Shown: positions 11,182-40,593 of the stretch, piece by piece
Layout: each line of letters starts with the position of its first letter
How positions within the stretch are numbered: position 1 is the first letter of the stretch
Assembly (NCBI GenBank): GCA_965214835.1
Contig: CBDCCK010000002.1
Span: forward strand, 96,001-160,000
Direction of reading: 5' to 3'
DNA from: Nitrosopumilaceae archaeon
GTDB lineage: Archaea; Thermoproteota; Nitrososphaeria; Nitrososphaerales; Nitrosopumilaceae
DNA: 64,000 nt
Made by a program: the position numbers and the translations under genes
The notes under the pieces: model-generated
The model's database searches: none
The model's input: the letters and a program-made list of their open reading frames with translations, nothing else
Told to the model about the DNA's origin: nothing

Positions 11182-11346
11182 ATATGGTTGCTGTTTTCTG
11201 GTTCATAACATCATCTCCTTTGTTTTTTGAAATGGCGGCAGACATGCTGCCGGGACATCCGGTGCCGTGTGGCACTGGCTGATCCGGCAGGCGCGGCCGA
11301 CGCGCTGGAAGGGAGGAGTTCGTTGTGTATGAAACATTTCCTCACC

Positions 11347-11491
11347 TTCCATACATGCGCTGCAGCCGTCTGGTGGCTGTGGGCGCATGTTTCGGCCTTC
11401 CCCTTTTTCAGAGAAGGAGAAGGCCAACCCGGATTGCTACTCCGAGCGTTCCACATGACACGCAAAGGTGCCGTGGAACTCATCAGTGGAA
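11347..11491 (-). ncRNA. Type I hammerhead ribozyme variant with a large insertion (copy A)
   Basis: TTCCA-CTGATGA-[2 hairpins]-GGCCTTC..GAAGGCC-GAAA-CATGCGC..GCGCATG-TA-TGGAA. Confidence 0.65.
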
Positions 11492-11588
11492 TTTTCCCTT
11501 TTTGACTTGTGGCCGGCATGGATGCCGGACGGATTGGGCGCACCGCCGCCGCCGTCATGGCAATGGCCGGTGCTGGCTTGGCGGACAT

Positions 11589-12401: not shown

Positions 12402-12529
12402 CTCCTTTTTTGCAGGTGCGGCAGTCACGCTGCCGGGACATCCGGTGCCGTGCGGCACTGGCTGATCCGGCAGGCGCGGCCGATGCGCTGGAAGGGAGGA
12501 GTCCGCTGTGTGTGAAACATTTCCTCACC

Positions 12530-12675
12530 TTCCATACATGCATCCACTGCCGTCTGACGGCTGTGGGTGCATGTTTCGACCTTCCCCTTTTTCAGGGACG
12601 GAGAAGGCCAACCCGGATTGCTGCTCCGAGCGTTCCACATGACACGCAAAGGTGCCGTGGAACTCATCAGTGGAA
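12530..12675 (-). ncRNA. Type I hammerhead ribozyme variant with a large insertion (copy B)
   Basis: Same core as copy A; stem III covaries (CATGCA/TGCATG versus CATGCG/CGCATG). Confidence 0.65.
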
Positions 12676-13080
12676 TTTTCCCTTTTGATTCATGACCGGC
12701 AGAGGCGCCGGTTCAGGCTGTCTGTTCTGGCGCGATGCCTGAATCATGGCACGCGCATCCGGACTGCACCATCCTGCGATGCGTCCGAGGTTTCCTATAC
12801 TGGAGGCGCACATGGCGCGCACCAGATCGACGCGGTCGTCCCGCGCAAGCGCGTTGAGAACGCGCACTGCGACGCGGGGGTCCACCCTGTTCTTATGGGT
12901 GACGCACCCGGCTACTGCCAGGGACGCGTTCCCGGAAAGGGACTTGCGCGCGCCCTGCCAGTTGTGGCCGCAGCAGGAATAGAACTCGGCTGCAAGGCCG
13001 GAGTGGCCGTTAATGACCAGGGCGTTGATGATGCCCGATACGTTCTTTGCGCTTAGCAATGCCAGGTGGTGCTGCAGCAG

Positions 13081-14976
13081 TTATACTGCAGGCATGGCAC
13101 TGTGAACCGGGCCCTGGCGGCCGTCCTGCGGAAGCGTTCTGCGACTGGAACGGCCGGCATGACTGCCGCGCTTGCCGCCGGCACCACTGCCGGAGCCCCT
13201 GGACTTTAGGAGGGTCCTGGCAAGACCGGCCTCCGTGCCTTTGCGGTCCACCGATTCCAGGGCAGATGACAGCTGCCTGAGGGATCCGGTGTCAAGCGAC
13301 CTCATCGAGGCGAGGACGTCGACTGTGGAGGAGTGTGTGTCCGGATAATCCGAATCCTCCGGCAGGGGCAGATCCATTCCGGACTCTGCCACATATGCGC
13401 CGTACTCCTTGACAAGCCTGTCGACTGCGCCGTTTTTGTGGCCACTTGCGGGCCTGCCGGCAGAATCCCTTGCGGGCCTGCCGCCGAGGATGCGGTATGC
13501 AAGCTTTGCCTCGGTTCCGCGACAGCCGGAGTTACGGAGATCGGCTGCCAGCCTCTTCAGGGAGTCCCTCTCAAGGCTTCTCAGTGATGCCATCGTCTCC
13601 TCGATGGAAGACTCGACGTCAGGGTATGCGTACTCGAACTCTGACTCTGTAGAGTCGATTCCGGATTCCGTCACATACTTGCTGCATTCGGCAATCGCTG
13701 CCGCGTTGGCATTCATTGCAGAGCCGTGGCGGCTGCCTGCAGCGGTCTTTTTGGCCCTGCCGCCTGCCGACTGCTTTCGGGCTGCCGGCGCGGTGCCTTG
13801 GCATCTGGCATGCGCGATTATGGCAGACGGATCAAAGGTTCTTTTGCCGCCCAGTCCTGCCTTTGACTTGGCGCGACTGAGAGTGCCCCATCCGGAGCGG
13901 CCGTCAGCAGAAGATGACGGCGACCGGTTACTGCGACTTTTGGATCTTGCCGCCATAGGCTGGTGCACCCTGCGTACGGGGAGCTCCTCCGGAGAGTCGT
14001 CCATGACCTCGGAGTAGAACTGTACCAGTGAGGCCTGCTCGTCGAGCTCAGAGGCGCTTGCCTTGAGATACTCGGCAGTTGCGGCGTCCTTTTCTTCTGC
14101 CAGTATGCCGGAGAACGTCTCGCGAACCTCATCAGACATCTCTGCCACGCATGCAAGGCTGCACACGCTGTCCTGCACGGCAGGATCAGCCGCCGTTGAC
14201 ACGACGGAAGGCTCGCAGGTCTTGACAGACATCCTGTCAAACTTGGATCCGGTACTGCTGATCTTTCTCCAGGATCCACTGCGGTCGCGGATTGCAAACG
14301 CTATCTCCGCTTTCCTGCAGCTGTCAATGTATTGCTGCCACGGTGATGCGGAGCGTTCGCGCCTTGTAAGCAGTGCCTGGCCGGCCGGCACCATTCCGTC
14401 AACGCCTGATGCGTGAGACGGGGTATCGGCATGAGATGACACGTGGGAGTGCACATCGTTGATGCCTGCAAGGACGCCGGTGTCGGTGACTGTGCTCACG
14501 GAGCCGTCATCCATGCGGGCCGCAAGGAGGGACAATCGCCTGTGACAGTCCTCCATGGCGTAGATCTCGCCGGGACACCCGTCGTCTGCAGGGTTCAGTG
14601 CAGATGATACCGTCTCATCGAGCATGCACTCTGCTGTAAGCTCGGTCCACTCGTCGCACATTGACTGTGCAAGCGATTTGGCCCGGGCTATCCTTACGTG
14701 GCGCGGTTCCCGCATCCTGACGGGGTTGCCAGTGTCCACAAGGATTATACTCCCGTTGGACATGACTGCGACAATCTCGCCACGTGACATGAACATATGC
14801 GTTTTACCGCCGCCTGCACCGGACGTCTTGTAGTAGACGGCCCCGCGGACGTTGGCGGATCTTCTCACCTGTCGGCAGACGCTGTTCACGTCGTGTTTTT
14901 TGCCGTCGACACTTATCGCGTCGAGGCGCGTATCTGTTTGTTTTGGTTTTTGTTTTTGTTTTTGTATTTGACTCAT
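13081..14976 (-). CDS. Large hypothetical protein with a duplicated C-terminal module
   Basis: About 630-aa ORF from MSQIQKQKQK; repeated YVxESG...YPD...ASxRSL...GTEA module. Confidence 0.65.
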   Translation of the reverse strand: MSQIQKQKQKPKQTDTRLDAISVDGKKHDVNSVCRQVRRSANVRGAVYYKTSGAGGGKTHMFMSRGEIVAVMSNGSIILVDTGNPVRMREPRHVRIARAKSLAQSMCDEWTELTAECMLDETVSSALNPADDGCPGEIYAMEDCHRRLSLLAARMDDGSVSTVTDTGVLAGINDVHSHVSSHADTPSHASGVDGMVPAGQALLTRRERSASPWQQYIDSCRKAEIAFAIRDRSGSWRKISSTGSKFDRMSVKTCEPSVVSTAADPAVQDSVCSLACVAEMSDEVRETFSGILAEEKDAATAEYLKASASELDEQASLVQFYSEVMDDSPEELPVRRVHQPMAARSKSRSNRSPSSSADGRSGWGTLSRAKSKAGLGGKRTFDPSAIIAHARCQGTAPAARKQSAGGRAKKTAAGSRHGSAMNANAAAIAECSKYVTESGIDSTESEFEYAYPDVESSIEETMASLRSLERDSLKRLAADLRNSGCRGTEAKLAYRILGGRPARDSAGRPASGHKNGAVDRLVKEYGAYVAESGMDLPLPEDSDYPDTHSSTVDVLASMRSLDTGSLRQLSSALESVDRKGTEAGLARTLLKSRGSGSGAGGKRGSHAGRSSRRTLPQDGRQGPVHSAMPAV

Positions 14977-15160
14977 TAAAACACCTTTTTTTGGTTGTCT
15001 CTTGGCACTGTCGTCATGACAGTGCAACGGCACGGCATTCTTTCCCGCGCCCGGTGTGATGCTGTAAAAAAACACATGATATGGGCCAGGTGACATCCGG
15101 CCCAAATGACACATGATAGAATCTTCATGCGCCGCTATACTGCGGAAAACTGTTCTCGGA

Positions 15161-15230
15161 CTCCCACACCTGCCTGCCTGTCAGCCTACAATAGTAGGTA
15201 ATGCAGGATTTGGAGGCCGCTGTCAGGTCA
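15161..15230 (-). ncRNA. Unknown structured motif X, copy 1
   Basis: TGACCTG..CTCC-AAAT-CCTGC-ATTA-hairpin-CTGACAGGCAG-GCAGG-TGTG-GGAG, following a T-tract. Confidence 0.6.
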
Positions 15231-15314
15231 CGAAAAAATTGGGGTTTGGACCGTCTACATGCGGCCCGTGTTCAGATACGCACAGTTGGGACATGCCGTC
15301 ACATGCCTCCTGCC

Positions 15315-15379
15315 TTCCACACCTGCCTGCCTGTCAGCCCTTTCGGGTATTGCAGGGTTTGAAAACAGTTGCCAGGTCA
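15315..15379 (-). ncRNA. Unknown structured motif X, copy 2
   Basis: Same conserved blocks with a shorter apical hairpin (CCC-GAAA-GGG). Confidence 0.6.
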
Positions 15380-15410
15380 CTAAAAATGTTGGATGCGTGC
15401 AGCCCCGAGG

Positions 15411-15758
15411 TCAGTTGCTCTTTCTCAGATACCCGGCGATCTCCCTGAGAATTGCCGTGATGTCATCCAGCTTGTCCAGCTTGGTGTCGATTCGATCCAG
15501 CTTGTCCAGCTTGGTGTTAATCCGGTCAAACCGCTTGTGTATCTTGGAGACCTCGTCATGTGTAAGAAGCAGCATCGTAATCCCTACGATCGCAGGCATT
15601 ATAAAGACTCCGTACACGGGCCACTCTCTTAGCAGCTCCAGCACGTCAGATTCCCCGCCAAACATGAGGAAGAATCCGAACAGAAGCATGCTTACAAATA
15701 CGACTCCCATCGGTCTTCTGAAGAGGAGCTGTACCTTTGCAGTAACGTGTTTGTTCAT
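15411..15758 (-). CDS. Two-TM protein with LDKLD heptad coiled-coil tail
   Basis: Hydrophobic segments then RFDRINTKLDKLDRIDTKLDKLD; tandem duplicate of 15877..16191. Confidence 0.75.
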   Translation of the reverse strand: MNKHVTAKVQLLFRRPMGVVFVSMLLFGFFLMFGGESDVLELLREWPVYGVFIMPAIVGITMLLLTHDEVSKIHKRFDRINTKLDKLDRIDTKLDKLDDITAILREIAGYLRKSN

Positions 15759-15776
15759 GTTGTTTGTTCCTTCGGA

Positions 15777-15845
15777 CTCCCACACCTGCCTGCCTGTCAG
15801 CCTACAAAGTAGGTAATGCAGGATTTGGAGACCGCTGTCAGGTCA
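15777..15845 (-). ncRNA. Unknown structured motif X, copy 3
   Basis: Ends about 19 nt upstream of the ATG at 15758. Confidence 0.6.
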
Positions 15846-15876
15846 CGAAAAAATGTTGGATGCGTTGCCCTTGATG

Positions 15877-16191
15877 TCAGTCCTTCTTCAGATACCCTGC
15901 GATTTCCCGCAGAACGGCGGTAATCTCGTCAAGCTTGTCAAGCTTGGTGTCAATCCGGTCAAACCGCTTGTGTATCTTGGAGACCTCGTCATGTGTAAGA
16001 AGCAGCATCGTAATCCCTACGATCGCAGGCATTATAAAGACTCCGTACACGGGCCACTCTCTTAGCAGCTCCAGCACGTCGGACTCCCCGCCAAACATGA
16101 GGAAGAATCCGAACAGAAGCATGCTTACAAATACGACTCCCATCGGTCTTCTGAAGAGGAGCTGTACCTTTGCAGTAACGTGTTTGTTCAT
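15877..16191 (-). CDS. Two-TM protein with LDKLD heptad tail (one repeat fewer)
   Basis: Nearly identical to 15411..15758. Confidence 0.75.
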   Translation of the reverse strand: MNKHVTAKVQLLFRRPMGVVFVSMLLFGFFLMFGGESDVLELLREWPVYGVFIMPAIVGITMLLLTHDEVSKIHKRFDRIDTKLDKLDEITAVLREIAGYLKKD

Positions 16192-16209
16192 GTTGTTTGT
16201 TCCTTCGGA

Positions 16210-16277
16210 CTCCCACACCTGCCTGCCTGTCAGCCTACAAAGTAGGTAATGCAGGATTTGGAGCCCTTGTCAGGTCA
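16210..16277 (-). ncRNA. Unknown structured motif X, copy 4
   Basis: Ends about 19 nt upstream of the ATG at 16191. Confidence 0.6.
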
Positions 16278-16312
16278 CTAAAAAATTTATGGTGTTTGAA
16301 GGAACAGGATTC

Positions 16313-16741
16313 CTACGGCACCCGCCTGTCCATGGCCGACTTTATGCCTCCCAGAACAGACAGTATTTCCTTTAGCACGACGCGCGTCATCTCGCCGTCG
16401 TCTTTGAGTGTCTTGCGCGTCATCTCGCCGTCGTCTTTGAGTGTCTTGCGCGTCATCTCGCCGTCCTTTCTGATGGCCTCCGTGAGTGTCTTGCGCGTCA
16501 TCTCGCCGTCCTTTCTGATGGTATCCTTGATTCCGGATGCGACATCGGCCGTAAGGAATGACATTATCAGTCCTACGAAGCCGGCGATAATAAAGGCTAT
16601 GCCCTCGCCGATCATGTCGATTCCGTCATTGATATGGGAGGACACGGCCATGACGACGCCGGTGCCGGTTATCCATCCGAACACGATGTTGGCGCGCCTG
16701 ATGATCCTGTCCTTGATTCTCTTCCTCATGTTCACGTTCAT
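16313..16741 (-). CDS. Two-TM protein with DGEMTRKTL repeats
   Basis: Two hydrophobic helices followed by four DGEMTR repeats. Confidence 0.7.
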   Translation of the reverse strand: MNVNMRKRIKDRIIRRANIVFGWITGTGVVMAVSSHINDGIDMIGEGIAFIIAGFVGLIMSFLTADVASGIKDTIRKDGEMTRKTLTEAIRKDGEMTRKTLKDDGEMTRKTLKDDGEMTRVVLKEILSVLGGIKSAMDRRVP

Positions 16742-16775
16742 TTTTTCTCCATTTGGCGTCTCACTCGCCGTGCAT

Positions 16776-16852
16776 TTCCCACACCGGCCTGCCTGTCAGC
16801 CCCGTGCCGCAATGGGACGGGATGATGCCGGTTTGGAATGGTTGGCAGGTCA
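16776..16852 (-). ncRNA. Unknown structured motif X, copy 5 (covarying)
   Basis: CCTGC/GCAGG becomes CCGGC/GCCGG and CTCC/GGAG becomes TTCC/GGAA, while the loop blocks are unchanged. Confidence 0.65.
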
Positions 16853-16883
16853 TAAAAAAAATAAAGGGGTGTTACGGCCTTTT

Positions 16884-17555
16884 TCAGCAGCCGTATGACT
16901 GTGCCCACGCTTCTCGCGCGAACTCGCTTTTTGTGCAGAACCTTTCCAGTATCTCGGCATGCCCGGAGGTGACAAGCATCTCGTTGATCGAGACCGCATC
17001 GGAGCTGTAATGACAGATCACCTTTGCTATCACCCTGTCATACGAGCCGCCGGGCTGGCCGTCGTCCACGTCGTATACCGCGACGCTTCCGACCGGGCAC
17101 TTGGAGCTGACGTATGCCGTGGCATCCTTGTACCCGAACTCCCCCCTCTCGGGGGTGTTGACTAGTGCAAGCCTGACCCGCTTGCCCTCAACGTCCAGCG
17201 TGTCGCCGTCGATGATCCTCGTTACCGCACCGGCCTTCAGGCCGATTACCGATGACAGCCCGGTGCCGCTCTGGTTGAGATACACCTGGTGACGCCCAAG
17301 GGGGTCTGCAGGCCTGTCCTTGTCGTCTGCCTGCTGGCTGTCTGGCGTGCTGTGCCAGTTGCCGGATCCGCGGCGGCTTTCTGCTGCGCCTGTGAACTGG
17401 GAATCAACGGCATGGCCTATGCTGTCAACAACGCTGTCCACGCCGCCTGAAACGACTGGCGTGAAATGGGCCGAGATTGCCGGCGCCACAACGATGATGG
17501 CCATCATAAGCACCATTCCGATGATGATGGTTCCTGTTGTTCTTAGTTTGGTCAT
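16884..17555 (-). CDS. Membrane-anchored thermonuclease (SNase family)
   Basis: RIIDGDTL, RVRLALVNTPE, YDRVIA and INEMLVTSGHA motifs; N-terminal TM helix. Confidence 0.9.
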   Translation of the reverse strand: MTKLRTTGTIIIGMVLMMAIIVVAPAISAHFTPVVSGGVDSVVDSIGHAVDSQFTGAAESRRGSGNWHSTPDSQQADDKDRPADPLGRHQVYLNQSGTGLSSVIGLKAGAVTRIIDGDTLDVEGKRVRLALVNTPERGEFGYKDATAYVSSKCPVGSVAVYDVDDGQPGGSYDRVIAKVICHYSSDAVSINEMLVTSGHAEILERFCTKSEFAREAWAQSYGC

Positions 17556-17623
17556 AGACGCCCAAAAATTTGGCGTTTCGGGTCTGCATAGCCCAGTCGG
17601 GCTGACCCAATCCTCAGTATGAC
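17551..17623 (-). ncRNA. Type I hammerhead ribozyme overlapping the thermonuclease start codon
   Basis: GTCATA-CTGAGGA-TT-GGGTC..GACCC-GAAA-CGCC..GGCG-TC-TATGAC. Confidence 0.88.
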
Positions 17624-17673
17624 TGCGTTGAGTGGAAATGAAAACAAGAAAAAAGAAGGGGCGGGCGTGAGCC

Positions 17674-17919
17674 CTAGTGGAAGTCGCATCGCCGGCGGTG
17701 AAAACCGTCCCAGCGGCAGCGGGGGCATGGCAGAATCTCCGGATCGCTCAGTACCCACCGGGCAATCCAGAGATAATCGTACCTGATCAGCCAGCGTACG
17801 GCCATCCGCATGCCGCCCCTGCGGACTGCGGAGCCAAAGCACCTGAACTCCTTGAGGATGTTCCAGAGCACGCGCGCCGAGACGTGCGTGTATACGCTGC
17901 TGTTTTTGCTAGAAGTCAT
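17674..17919 (-). CDS. Small Cys-containing hypothetical protein
   Basis: ATG lies in hammerhead stem I; CPRC...CDFH end shared with 18262..18636. Confidence 0.6.
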   Translation of the reverse strand: MTSSKNSSVYTHVSARVLWNILKEFRCFGSAVRRGGMRMAVRWLIRYDYLWIARWVLSDPEILPCPRCRWDGFHRRRCDFH

Positions 17920-17991
17920 AGACGCCCAAAAGTTTGGCGTTTCGGGCTTGCATGAACCCCTGGAGGGGGCTGGCCCAATCGTCAGTATGAC
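17915..17991 (-). ncRNA. Type I hammerhead ribozyme overlapping a start codon
   Basis: GTCATA-CTGACGA-TT-GGGC..GCCC-GAAA-CGCC..GGCG-TC-TATGAC. Confidence 0.88.
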
Positions 17992-18063
17992 CGTTGAGTG
18001 AAAGGAAGAAAAAGAATGGGTGGGGAGGACTTGAGGATCCTCCCGGATCGAGGAGCGAATGAC

Positions 18064-18261: not shown

Positions 18262-18636
18262 CTAATGGAAGTTACACCACGTCCAGTACGAGCCCCAGTT
18301 CTCATCTTCCTGAACCCAGACTTTGTAACAATGGGGACACTTCACGTCAAACGGCGCCTCACGAGCCAATCGGAGAACCTCCCGGGTGCAATCCCAGAAA
18401 CGGCGCCATTTGGTTCTCAGGCTACAACCATAGCCATACCAGAGGCGCAGTTCGCAAAGGCGTTCTGCATGGCGCAGGGTACAACCGTGCAGACATGCAC
18501 ACGACTCAGGCCTGAAATTACGGTAGAGTTGATAGCAGACGCGCACCCACAGGTGTGAATAGATGCCTCTTTTTTTCACACGAGGGTATTTTGCCAGTGC
18601 TGTCTTTTCGTCGTAATAGATGCTTTTCGAAGTCAT
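18262..18636 (-). CDS. Cys-rich hypothetical protein
   Basis: Starts MTSKSIYY at the hammerhead; CPHC...CNFH end. Confidence 0.65.
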   Translation of the reverse strand: MTSKSIYYDEKTALAKYPRVKKRGIYSHLWVRVCYQLYRNFRPESCACLHGCTLRHAERLCELRLWYGYGCSLRTKWRRFWDCTREVLRLAREAPFDVKCPHCYKVWVQEDENWGSYWTWCNFH

Positions 18637-18707
18637 AGACGCCCAAAAATCTGGCGTTTCGGGCTTGCGTGAGCCCCTTGCGGGACTGGCCCAATCATCA
18701 GTATGAC
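18632..18707 (-). ncRNA. Type I hammerhead ribozyme overlapping a start codon
   Basis: GTCATA-CTGATGA-TT-GGGC..GCCC-GAAA-CGCC..GGCG-TC-TATGAC. Confidence 0.9.
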
Positions 18708-18790
18708 CGTTGAGTGAAAGTAAGAAGAAGGAAAAAAGAATGGGAGGGGAGGCCATGAGAGGGCCATCCCCGATCAAAGGTTCGAACGGC

Positions 18791-21577: not shown

Positions 21578-23172
21578 GAGGGCTCAGACTGCTCCCTGTC
21601 TTCATTGCATCGCAGTGATGCTCAGAATGAATGGTGTCTCATCATCGCCCTCGTTTGTGTAGCAGAATAATGCGGGAATCTAATCGGCAAAGCAGGTTGG
21701 AGTTATATTACAGAATAATGATTCAGGAAATGGTGATGAGGGCTCAGACAACGCCAGATTCATCATGAATCAGACTGGGGGTGTCTCATCATCGCCCTCG
21801 TTTGTGTAGCAGAATAATGCGGGAATTTTCAAAGTCAGAATGGCTGGAGTTATATGGTGGAGTGTGGTACGAAACATGGTGATGAGGGCTCAGATGTCAC
21901 GGCTTTCTTCATAGCCACGACAGGCTCGGAGATTATTGCTGATCTCGGCCCTTTGTTCTTCATCATCGCCCTCGTTTGTGTAGCAGAATAATGCGGGAAT
22001 TTTCAAAGTCAGAATGGCTGGAGTTATATGGTGGAGTGTGGTACGAAACATGGTGATGAGGGCTCAGACAACGCCAGATTCATCATGAATCAGACTGTGT
22101 GTGTCTCATCATCGCCCTCGTTTGTGTAGCAGAATAATGCGGGAATTTTCAAAGTTGGAATGGCTGGAGTTATATGGTGGAGTGTGGTACGAAACATGGT
22201 GATGAGGGCTCAGACAACGCCAGATTCATCATGAATCAGACTGTTGGTGTCTCATCATCGCCCTCGTTTGTACAGCATAATTTGCAGAAGTTTCTGCTTC
22301 AAAGTTGGCTGGAGTTATATGGTGGAGTGTGGTACGAAACATGGTGATGAGGGCTCAGACTGATCTCTGTCGTCATTGCATCGCAGTGATGCTCAGTATG
22401 AATGGTGTCTCATCATCGCCCTCGTTTGTGTAGCGGAATAATGCGGGAATCTAATCGGCAAAGCAGGTTGGAGTTATATTACAGAATAATGATTCAGGAA
22501 ATGGTGATGAGGGCTCAGATAGGTAGCTGTCTTCATTCACGAAGTCAGAATAACAGGCTGTCATCATCGCCCTCGTCTGTGTAGCGGAACAATACGGGAA
22601 TCTCGGCGGCAAATCAGGTTGGAGTTATATGGTGGGATGATAATTCAGGAAATGGTGATGAGGGCTCAGACTGACTCGACCGTCATTGCATCACAATGAT
22701 GCTCCGGATGAATGGAACTCATCATCGCCCTTGTTTGTGTAGCGGAATAATACGAAAATCAAAAGTTAGAATGGCTGAAGTTATATGGTGGAGTGTGGTA
22801 CGAAACATGGTGATGAGGGCTCAGAATGCTAACTGTCTTCATTCGTGAAGTCAGTATAACAGGCTGTCATCATCGCCCTCGTTTGTGTAGCAGAATAATG
22901 CCGGAATGACCGGGTTGGAGTTATATTGCAGAATGATGATTCGGGAAATGGTGATGAGGGCTCAGACCTATAGCTGTCTTCATTCGTGAAGTCAGAATGA
23001 ATGGAACTCATCATCGCCCTCGTTTGTGTAGCAGAATAATGCGGGAATCTAATCGGCAAAGCAGGTTGGAGTTATATTGTGGAATGATAATTCAGGAAAT
23101 GGTGATGAGGGCTCAGATAGGTAGCTGTCTTCATTCGTGAAGTCAGAATGAATGGAACTCATCATCGCCCTC
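21578..23172 (-). ncRNA. Tandem array of 11 box C/D guide sRNAs
   Basis: Each unit reads GAGGGCG-ATGATGA(C)-guide-CTGA(D')-loop-ATGAAGA/ATGATGA/ATGACGR(C')-guide-CTGA(D)-GCCCTC. Units: 21578-21652, 21738-21799, 21884-21973, 22058-22119, 22204-22265, 22349-22423, 22509-22574, 22660-22732, 22815-22880, 22956-23021, 23107-23172. Confidence 0.9.
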
Positions 23173-39820: not shown

Positions 39821-40367
39821 GCTTCAATGGGACCACGACATTATCGTCGCGGAAATGGATGATGGCGCCGTCTTCGCCTGCCGTCATAACGGGCTTCAAT
39901 GGGGCCGCAACTTTATCGTCGCGGAAAGATATAATGCGAGATTTAACACAGGAACTCGGAAACTTGCTTCAATGGGGCCGCAACTTTATCGTCGCGGAAA
40001 GGTCGGAACCATGGGACGGATTGGCGGGACGGGAGGACGCTTCAATGGGGCCGCAACTTTATCGTCGCGGAAAGGTCGGAACCATGGGACGGATTGGCGG
40101 GACGGGAGGACGCTTCAATGGGGCCGCGACATTACCGTCGCGGAAATTCGTGAGGGCCCTGGAAATGATGATGCGTATATCACAGCTTCAATGGGGCCGC
40201 GACATTACCGTCGCGGAAATAGCTTTCTGCATATGCCGTTACATGCATCGTCATTACGCTTCAATGGGGCCGCGACATTACCGTCGCGGAAATTGGGTAA
40301 TGACGTGACTACCATATCCCTGCAGGGCAACGCTTCAATGGGGCCGCGACATTACCGTCGCGGAAAT
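39821..40367 (-). CRISPR. Type I-G-like CRISPR array, 8 repeats and 7 spacers
   Basis: 36-bp repeat GCTTCAATGGGGCCGCGACATTACCGTCGCGGAAAT (two variants) at 39821, 39893, 39966, 40039, 40112, 40185, 40258, 40332; spacers 36-38 bp, spacers 3 and 4 identical; minus orientation ends in ATTGAAGC. Confidence 0.97.
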
Positions 40368-40593
40368 ACTGCAATGCCGACAGGTTCGGCCATTGCCTGT
40401 GCGTGACAGGCATCTTTTTTGTACAGCCCTTGCGTTTTTCGCACCACACATGCCGCGATGGCATGCGTCCTCACACTCACATATAATACATTTTCAAGCG
40501 CCTCCTCACAGCGGTGGTACCCAGGATCCCTCGCATGCCACGCCTGCCGGTGACACCAGAGACATACGTGACGATCTGACGCATATGCAGGAT

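Follow-up and report, generated by a model that had tools for sequence, protein, structure and literature searches.

The 64,000-nucleotide (nt) stretch of Nitrosopumilaceae archaeon DNA analyzed here (contig CBDCCK010000002.1, positions 96,001 to 160,000; referred to as the window) contains five copies of a ~80-nt element on its minus strand, between positions 15158 and 16861 and in the same sense as all flanking genes. The element, referred to as the motif, is a genuine structured RNA read on the gene strand. It occupies a slot equivalent to that of hammerhead ribozymes in the same islands, and orthologous genes use one or the other. We rate the motif as a new RNA class that belongs to no Rfam 15 family; its function is put forward as a proposal only. 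A preliminary description of the window, made from the sequence alone, had reported five copies, a T-tract ahead of each, a set of constant blocks, and the placement of three copies 19–35 nt upstream of an open reading frame (ORF). All five copies were recovered together with the constant blocks, a run of 5–8 T directly precedes each of them, and three end 19–35 nt before an ATG codon (Table 1).

The motif forms one long hairpin of three nested helices, P1, P2 and P3, separated by two conserved internal loops, and a pseudoknot (PK) arises where the 5' tail base-pairs with the inner loop on its 3' side. The strands follow the order PK5'-P1-P2-P3 hairpin-PK3'-P2'-P1'. Structure statistics were obtained for 44 distinct copies, condensed from 53 hits, and cover 22 base pairs (bp), namely the three helices and the pseudoknot. 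These are 92.7% paired. Covariation in this wider alignment is strong, with both-sided changes at 17 of the 22 pairs (167 cells); none of 500 shuffles and no slid register came close. All helices covary, and the P2 versions include CCUGC/GCAGG, CCGGC/GCCGG, CUCAC/GUGAG, CCGUU/AACGG, CUCCC/GGGAG and CCAAC/GUUGG. The two stem covariations reported previously (CCUGC/GCAGG to CCGGC/GCCGG and CUCC/GGAG to UUCC/GGAA) are correct but thin when only the window is considered. A recent 300-nt duplication with 98% identity spans copies 3 and 4 together with the genes behind them, which accounts for the near identity of copies 1, 3 and 4, and the window alone therefore yields three independent versions of the motif.

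The pseudoknot was absent from the covariance model of the motif (R1), so that the alignment was not biased towards it. Nonetheless it is 98.9% paired. Most copies have CCUG/CAGG; two Nitrosopumilus loci that are nearly identical to each other, as well as the genome of another family described below, have CCGAG/CUCGG instead, and one further copy has CUGAG/CUCAG. The 4-bp CCUG/CAGG pairing proposed in the preliminary description is thus upheld by compensatory changes in relatives, but its extension by CA/UG pairs fails, with U replaced by C, or the segment missing, in divergent copies. A pair of identical direct-repeat protein sites was considered and rejected because the two blocks remain complementary, not alike, in the variant copies. 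The alignment also contains 37 G-U cells, which would be A-C on the opposite strand and identify the gene strand as the folding strand.

Sequence conservation is concentrated in the junctions rather than in the helices and amounts to ~35 nearly invariant nucleotides. Among these, UGA precedes the pseudoknot and CAA follows it, C-AAA separates P1 from P2, A-N-U-A precedes P3, (CU)GA lies ahead of the 3' strand of the pseudoknot, and UGUG joins P2 to P1. Both the length and the loop of the inner hairpin are variable, and the pseudoknot is followed by a junction of CAG, UGG, CGG or CCC. Invariant junctions combined with variable helices are the pattern of small ribozymes. Nothing is conserved 3' of P1 outside single lineages; one such lineage-specific feature was seen in G164 (L157, L158), where two extra conserved GC-rich hairpins follow P1 and precede a Shine-Dalgarno-like word. 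An invariant 11-mer of the inner loop has exactly five matches in the window, all in motif copies, and when one mismatch is allowed it has 11 sites versus 1.5 expected, a number reached in none of 100 shuffles of the window. A 21-nt block from the 3' side has five matches in the whole 3.22-Mb genome, all in motif copies, and none when reversed as a control.

Genome samples were searched with R1 under strict filters, and the counts refer to the genomes searched. R1 matched 4 of 151 genomes of the order, with 2 of 23 in the organism's own family, 1 of 23 in one other family and none in the remaining 18 families; the match in the other family is in a single genome and scores 36.8 bits. Seven of 151 Nitrosopumilaceae genomes were matched, in three genera (2/4, 1/5 and 3/3), and none of 131 genomes from other families of the phylum. 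Each positive genome contains 2–9 copies, all within one region. When one genome per species was scanned with an exact pattern, 108 stretches were obtained, and the whole motif was present at 7 loci from 5 records, with up to six tandem copies; the other stretches were judged from their flanks to be chance matches. The seven loci are from Nitrosopumilus or Nitrosopumilaceae, except for one labelled 'bacterium' that is near-identical to a Nitrosopumilus locus. Three further stretches (L037, L042 and L097) passed a loose regular expression but were rejected by eye, as they are without the T-run, CAAA and the helices. A single gapped-pattern scan of metagenome contigs yielded 40 stretches, of which only L165, with two copies, is genuine, although the pattern was strict and the scan is no measure of rarity. 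Among viral contigs, two pattern scans yielded 10 stretches and 1 stretch, respectively, and the complete motif was in none of them.

The absence of a match to known families, as previously noted, was borne out. Rfam 15 had no match on the motif when the whole window was searched at the gathering thresholds and at E ≤ 10, none at E ≤ 10 for 261 nt containing two copies, and none at gathering scores for five related loci. A weak relative of a known family could have been missed by these searches, since the score of a genuine minimal hammerhead was no more than 19 bits in a similar Rfam search. No description of the motif was found in the literature collection searched.

Table 1 Features of the window and hammerheads of related loci. 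Motif coordinates run from the T-run to the end of the outer helix.
Feature	Position	Strand	Description
Motif copy 1	15158–15238	-	R1 match, 99.6 bits; T-run, 5' block, P1-P2-P3 and pseudoknot; precedes large ORF ending at 13081
Motif copy 2	15310–15386	-	R1 match, 84.9 bits; diverged version, P1 of 8 bp
Motif copy 3	15774–15853	-	R1 match, 97.2 bits; ends 19 nt upstream of ATG of a 115-amino-acid (aa) membrane plus repeat protein (15411–15758)
Motif copy 4	16207–16285	-	R1 match, 95.7 bits; ends 19 nt upstream of ATG of a 104-aa paralogue (15877–16191)
Motif copy 5	16773–16861	-	R1 match, 78.7 bits; P2 CCGGC/GCCGG, long P3
SNase-like gene	16884–17555	-	Pfam SNase, E 5e-05; stop ~20 nt before T-run of copy 5; start inside hammerhead-like element 3
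Hammerhead-like element 3	17545–17624	-	Predicted cut between 17557 and 17556, one nt before ATG at 17555
Hammerhead-like element 2	17911–17992	-	Predicted cut one nt before ATG at 17919 (81-aa ORF)
Hammerhead-like element 1	18631–18708	-	Predicted cut one nt before ATG at 18636 (124-aa Cys-rich ORF)
Hammerhead in L160	~11004		Missed by Rfam at gathering score
Hammerheads in L136	573, 1838, 2212		Missed by Rfam at gathering score
Hammerheads in L157	6195, 11493		Missed by Rfam at gathering score
Hammerheads in L078	4575, 5088		Missed by Rfam at gathering score

The assignment of the motif to the hammerhead slot, proposed in the preliminary description, rests on the hammerheads of the same islands and the genes that they lead. 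The three hammerhead-like elements of the window contain CUGA-N-GA (N = U, C or G) and GAAAC; stem III has 5 bp, stem I has 6–7 bp, and the cut site is GUC. They carry two extra U's before stem II, and the ATG codons next to them are the starts of real ORFs. Rfam calls none of them, and a search of that stretch at E ≤ 10 gave two chance hits only. A strict scan of the related loci identified ten canonical type-I hammerheads, or eight if two near-identical loci are counted once, and in all ten the start codon begins at the second nucleotide after the predicted cut (nine AUG and one GUG). A looser scan added one hammerhead, with its ATG at the third nucleotide after the cut. A canonical hammerhead of G176 matches the RAGATH-1 hammerhead model weakly (19 bits, E 1.2). 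As judged from these positions, the island hammerheads would release messenger RNAs (mRNAs) with a one-nucleotide leader, i.e. near-leaderless mRNAs, from internal genes. A comparable arrangement is described for haloarchaeal viruses in PMC3088659, where a hammerhead lies close to the start codon and the mapped 5' end is near the cut.

The SNase-like gene provides the most direct comparison. It lies directly behind a hammerhead-like element in the window and behind a canonical hammerhead in G164, and in L078 an 11-codon mini-ORF is placed between the gene and the canonical hammerhead that leads it. The G176 orthologue of the window gene (39% identity, E 4e-45) has the motif 10 nt before its ATG. 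A second paralogue in G176 and a gene in G145 with the same motif words, both read by eye and not confirmed by Pfam, are likewise led by the motif. In L078 (4470–4580, minus strand) the stop codon of the mini-ORF overlaps the start of the SNase-like gene (UAAUG), which suggests translational coupling from a leaderless mini-ORF to that gene. Two copies of a ~190-nt element were also observed on the minus strand of the window, at ~11260–11500 and ~12440–12690, upstream of two paralogous genes. It comprises CUGAUGA, a hairpin of 7 bp, an insert of ~50 nt, GAAAC, a stem of 7 bp and GUA, and it may be a larger hammerhead-like variant, the putative cut of which would split an AUG.

The gene junctions that contain the motif share a common order: an upstream stop codon, a pure T-run, the motif, a short leader that often includes a Shine-Dalgarno-like word, and the next gene or C/D-box small RNA (sRNA). 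In 39 of the 44 distinct copies, a pure run of 5–12 T ends 0–3 nt before the conserved UGA, and in the copies read the T-run lies 4–27 nt after the upstream stop codon. The position of that stop codon led to the rejection of a -1 frameshift site. Neither a promoter-like signal nor room for one is present between the T-run and the motif, or a promoter-like signal between the junction and the gene.

We considered whether the motif acts as DNA, with the T-run as a TATA box, a transcription start ~22 nt downstream at C-AAA and the conserved blocks as operators, or as a single-stranded DNA hairpin of a transferred strand. In this genome, the promoters of transfer RNA (tRNA) genes consist of T-rich boxes located ~22 nt ahead of the mature 5' end; some of these boxes contain the word AACATTTTT, which is also present in copies 2 and 3, and the spacing from the T-run to C-AAA is 20–22 nt. 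However, a start at C-AAA would drop the 5' strand of P1 as well as that of the pseudoknot, both of which covary with their partners. The runs before the motif consist of T only, while nearly all tRNA boxes include an A; the sequence before the G164 runs is C-rich, and two G164 copies have no run. On these grounds we read the T-run as a U-tract in a read-through transcript. Since the 5' strands of P1 and the pseudoknot must be in the RNA, transcripts presumably enter from upstream. The single-stranded DNA version leaves the T-run unpaired and therefore provides no duplex promoter. The promoter hairpin of a conjugative leading region, raised as an alternative in the preliminary description, is unsupported in view of this point and of the presence of 5–9 copies per island before many genes. 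No conjugation protein was found among 18 protein queries scanned, representing 12 different window proteins. A role at the DNA level is accordingly regarded as highly improbable. An integron attC site was also rejected; the motif has no inverted core sites, and a pseudoknot with ~35 invariant loop nucleotides is foreign to attC.

The genes downstream of the motif are unrelated to one another and include the SNase-like gene, small membrane proteins and large unknown proteins. In the window, copy 5 ends 35 nt upstream of the start codon (ATG) for a membrane plus repeat protein of 142 aa (16313–16741), the L078 orthologue of which is likewise preceded by the motif, and there is no intact ORF between copy 2 and copy 1. 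Four C/D-box sRNAs of G145, all with canonical box spacing, have the motif in front of them and begin 12–15 nt after its P1, and hence the motif acts at the level of RNA, not translation. One G164 gene family always has the motif in its leader, be it behind a T-run, behind a hammerhead or inside another gene, from which it follows that the motif belongs to the downstream unit. Two of these copies (L157 8906–8988 and 11591–11668) are without a T-run but have the complete fold. One interrupts a gene related to the 'PAVAGG' proteins of the window; the other is 45 nt behind a hammerhead, and an 11-codon GUG mini-ORF follows the hammerhead cut and ends just before the motif. The motif and its gene seem to move as a module, and the earlier suggestion of a leader element fits a motif that travels with the downstream gene.

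A leader of this kind could in principle be a riboswitch or another ligand-sensing aptamer controlling the downstream gene, in keeping with the compact pseudoknotted fold in 5' leaders and the Shine-Dalgarno-like words after several copies. The downstream genes, however, share no pathway, C/D-box sRNAs lie behind four of the copies, the variable downstream leader offers no conserved alternative pairing, and no Rfam riboswitch matches. We give this explanation very little credence.

An RNA-processing role is indicated by five properties of the motif: it is located at gene junctions, exchangeable with hammerheads, independent of the downstream content, tied to the downstream unit, and built like a ribozyme. 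Our tentative first choice, made by analogy and held with less than even confidence, is that the motif is a cis-acting RNA that marks gene junctions and is a small ribozyme self-cleaving near its 5' edge. Long read-through transcripts would cross the gene junctions of the island, presumably by polycistronic transcription, and a cut would be made at or near the 5' edge of the motif, probably between the U-run and the conserved UGA. The upstream RNA would be released with U's at its 3' end, and the downstream RNA would keep the compact fold as its 5' end. A pure U-run is a terminator-type signal in archaea. Cleavage near the 5' edge is ranked first because the topology is analogous to that of the hepatitis delta virus (HDV)-like ribozymes and the architecture to that of hatchet.

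The HDV-like ribozymes and the motif have in common a length of ~70–90 nt and a nested double-pseudoknot topology, in which a 5' strand forms pairs behind a hairpin and a second long-range helix encloses that hairpin. According to PMC6561176, HDV cleavage occurs at the very 5' end and makes no demand on the upstream sequence. The motif differs in that its pseudoknot has 4–5 bp starting with C-G, whereas the P1 helix of HDV has 6–7 bp starting with G-U at the cleavage site. It has neither P1.1 nor P4, its enclosed hairpin is variable in contrast to the 3-bp P3 of HDV with a conserved L3, and it has the extra conserved junctions AAA, UGUG and ANUA. Thus, the motif has the topology of the HDV-like class, but not the G-U of P1, the P3/L3 element, P1.1 or the catalytic C in J4/2, and no HDV model matches it. 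The similarity to hatchet lies in a long hairpin of three helices, two conserved internal loops, a conserved 5' element and occurrence near other ribozymes. Hatchet is described as cutting at its 5' end in PMC6561176 and PMC6154101, and the former gives its layout as a 5' P1 hairpin, a conserved three-nucleotide linker and P2-L2-P3-L3-P4. The motif has no 5' hairpin, only the U-run and ~11 nt before the first helix, and its 5' single strand forms the pseudoknot; its conserved nucleotides are other than those of hatchet, and the Rfam model does not match.

The hammerheads of the islands are similar to the motif in location, after an upstream gene and a T-rich tract and before the next gene on the same strand, but not in structure. 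The motif has CUGAC-AG in place of CUGANGA, no GAAA strand and no three-way junction, being one hairpin with a pseudoknot, and no hammerhead model matches it at E ≤ 10. The predicted hammerhead cut is one nt before the start codon, whereas the motif lies roughly 10 to more than 60 nt away from it, often with a Shine-Dalgarno-like word in between. Twister, twister-sister, pistol, hairpin, glmS and VS gave no matches at E ≤ 10, either for the 261 nt with two copies or for the motif in the whole window. The RAGATH motifs resemble the motif in the logic of their discovery and in the kind of neighbourhood, near genes linked to twister and hammerhead, but no RAGATH family in Rfam 15 matches it.

Several observations weigh against self-cleavage. 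The U-run, conserved in 39 of the 44 copies, is to our knowledge needed by no known ribozyme and hints at another logic. As far as is known, most conserved motifs found near hammerhead or twister loci failed to self-cleave when tested, and no known ribozyme class matches the motif in Rfam 15 at E ≤ 10. The distance from the motif to the start codon is variable, unlike the exact design of the hammerheads, and in the G164 junction where the motif follows a hammerhead by 45 nt a second ribozyme would be redundant. Single-sequence folding gives z-scores between -1.5 and +0.8, i.e. no unusual stability, and recovers P1 and P2 in three of the five window copies, with P3 fully formed in one of these. 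P2 also contains mismatches in several G145 copies. Weak single-sequence stability is common among tertiary-structured RNAs and decides nothing either way.

Because the U-run is unexplained by ribozyme action, a roadblock or antitermination role stays alive. In its non-catalytic form, the motif would act like an exonuclease-resistant RNA (xrRNA): a host nuclease (the termination factor FttA/aCPSF1 or a 5'-3' exonuclease of the RNase J type) cuts at the U-run, and the pseudoknot 4–6 nt later stops 5'-3' digestion, so that the downstream RNA survives and the polymerase may escape termination. FttA acts at U-tracts. This explanation is compatible with the T-run of at least 5 T immediately before the motif, its placement shortly past the upstream stop codon, the locking of the first nucleotides after the U-run into the pseudoknot, the need for read-through at junctions with no promoter-like signal before the gene, and the association of the motif with the downstream gene. 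The xrRNAs of flaviviruses and plant viruses are likewise compact folds, in which a pseudoknot holds the 5' end at the point of entry for a 5'-3' nuclease. The motif, however, has no sequence or model similarity to them and matches no Rfam xrRNA family, and the known xrRNAs act against the eukaryotic Xrn1. We know of no xrRNA outside viruses of eukaryotes, and the two G164 copies without a T-run keep the whole fold. A roadblock of this type is considered unlikely. Still more doubtful is the specific version in which the motif is the first prokaryotic xrRNA, placed behind the U-run where the termination factor cuts and blocking its 5'-3' chase, with 'cut-and-continue' junctions in which hammerheads are the alternative device in the same slots. 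If that version were true, 'cut-and-continue' junctions would give the upstream mRNA its 3' end while the polymerase goes on, and would let a promoter-poor mobile island make many separate RNAs per transcription run.

Alternatively, an island or host protein may recognize the fold and either cleave it as Cas6 does or regulate the stability, antitermination or translation of the downstream genes. The 5–9 copies per island before unrelated genes are consistent with such a protein, the invariant loop nucleotides could form a binding surface for it, and many island proteins belong to no known family. On the other hand, the pseudoknot and the ~35 invariant junction nucleotides far exceed the usual needs of a protein-binding hairpin, and no co-occurring RNA-binding or nuclease partner was identified, though no systematic search was made. 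We hold recognition by a protein to be improbable as well.

About ten natural classes of small ribozyme that cleave themselves are known, and the latest few were found as conserved folds beside hammerheads. The motif is positionally exchangeable with hammerheads and is thus a ready candidate for a self-cleavage test. Whatever its chemistry, it reveals that operons of ammonia-oxidising archaea can be built in an unusual manner, with a U-run and an RNA device at every gene junction of an island. The hammerhead version would turn internal genes into leaderless mRNAs, a kind that these archaea translate. The motif bears on how archaea express internal cistrons and on how archaeal termination is bypassed, both of which are directly testable there.

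The mobile-looking island that houses the motif is conserved. Its genes encode an SNase-like membrane protein, small membrane proteins in tandem whose C-terminal repeats vary, large proteins without a known family, an actin-like partition protein and a DNA methylase, alongside arrays of C/D-box sRNAs, and every one of these gene types has members that follow the motif. Pfam and PHROGs searches of the island proteins identified only SNase, the actin-like partition protein, the DNA methylase and a weak metalloprotease match. The small membrane proteins encoded behind the motif (16313–16741, 15411–15758 and 15877–16191 in the window; 1087–3537 in L078) are paralogues that differ mainly in the number of short C-terminal repeats. 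The corresponding DNA repeats of the window genes are 33 and 45 nt, and the L078 forms have 111–132 aa. These differences suggest that the repeat number changes rapidly.

Two other arrays were observed on the minus strand of the window. A tandem array of ~11 C/D-box sRNA genes occupies 21579–23170, with a spacing of ~150 nt and a conserved ~85-nt spacer for each gene; one of the sRNAs attains the Rfam gathering score, the rest being slightly under it. The equivalent sRNAs of G145 have the motif in place of the ~85-nt spacer. A CRISPR array is located at 39821–40369, where eight repeats match RF01330 at E ≤ 10, one of them at the gathering score.

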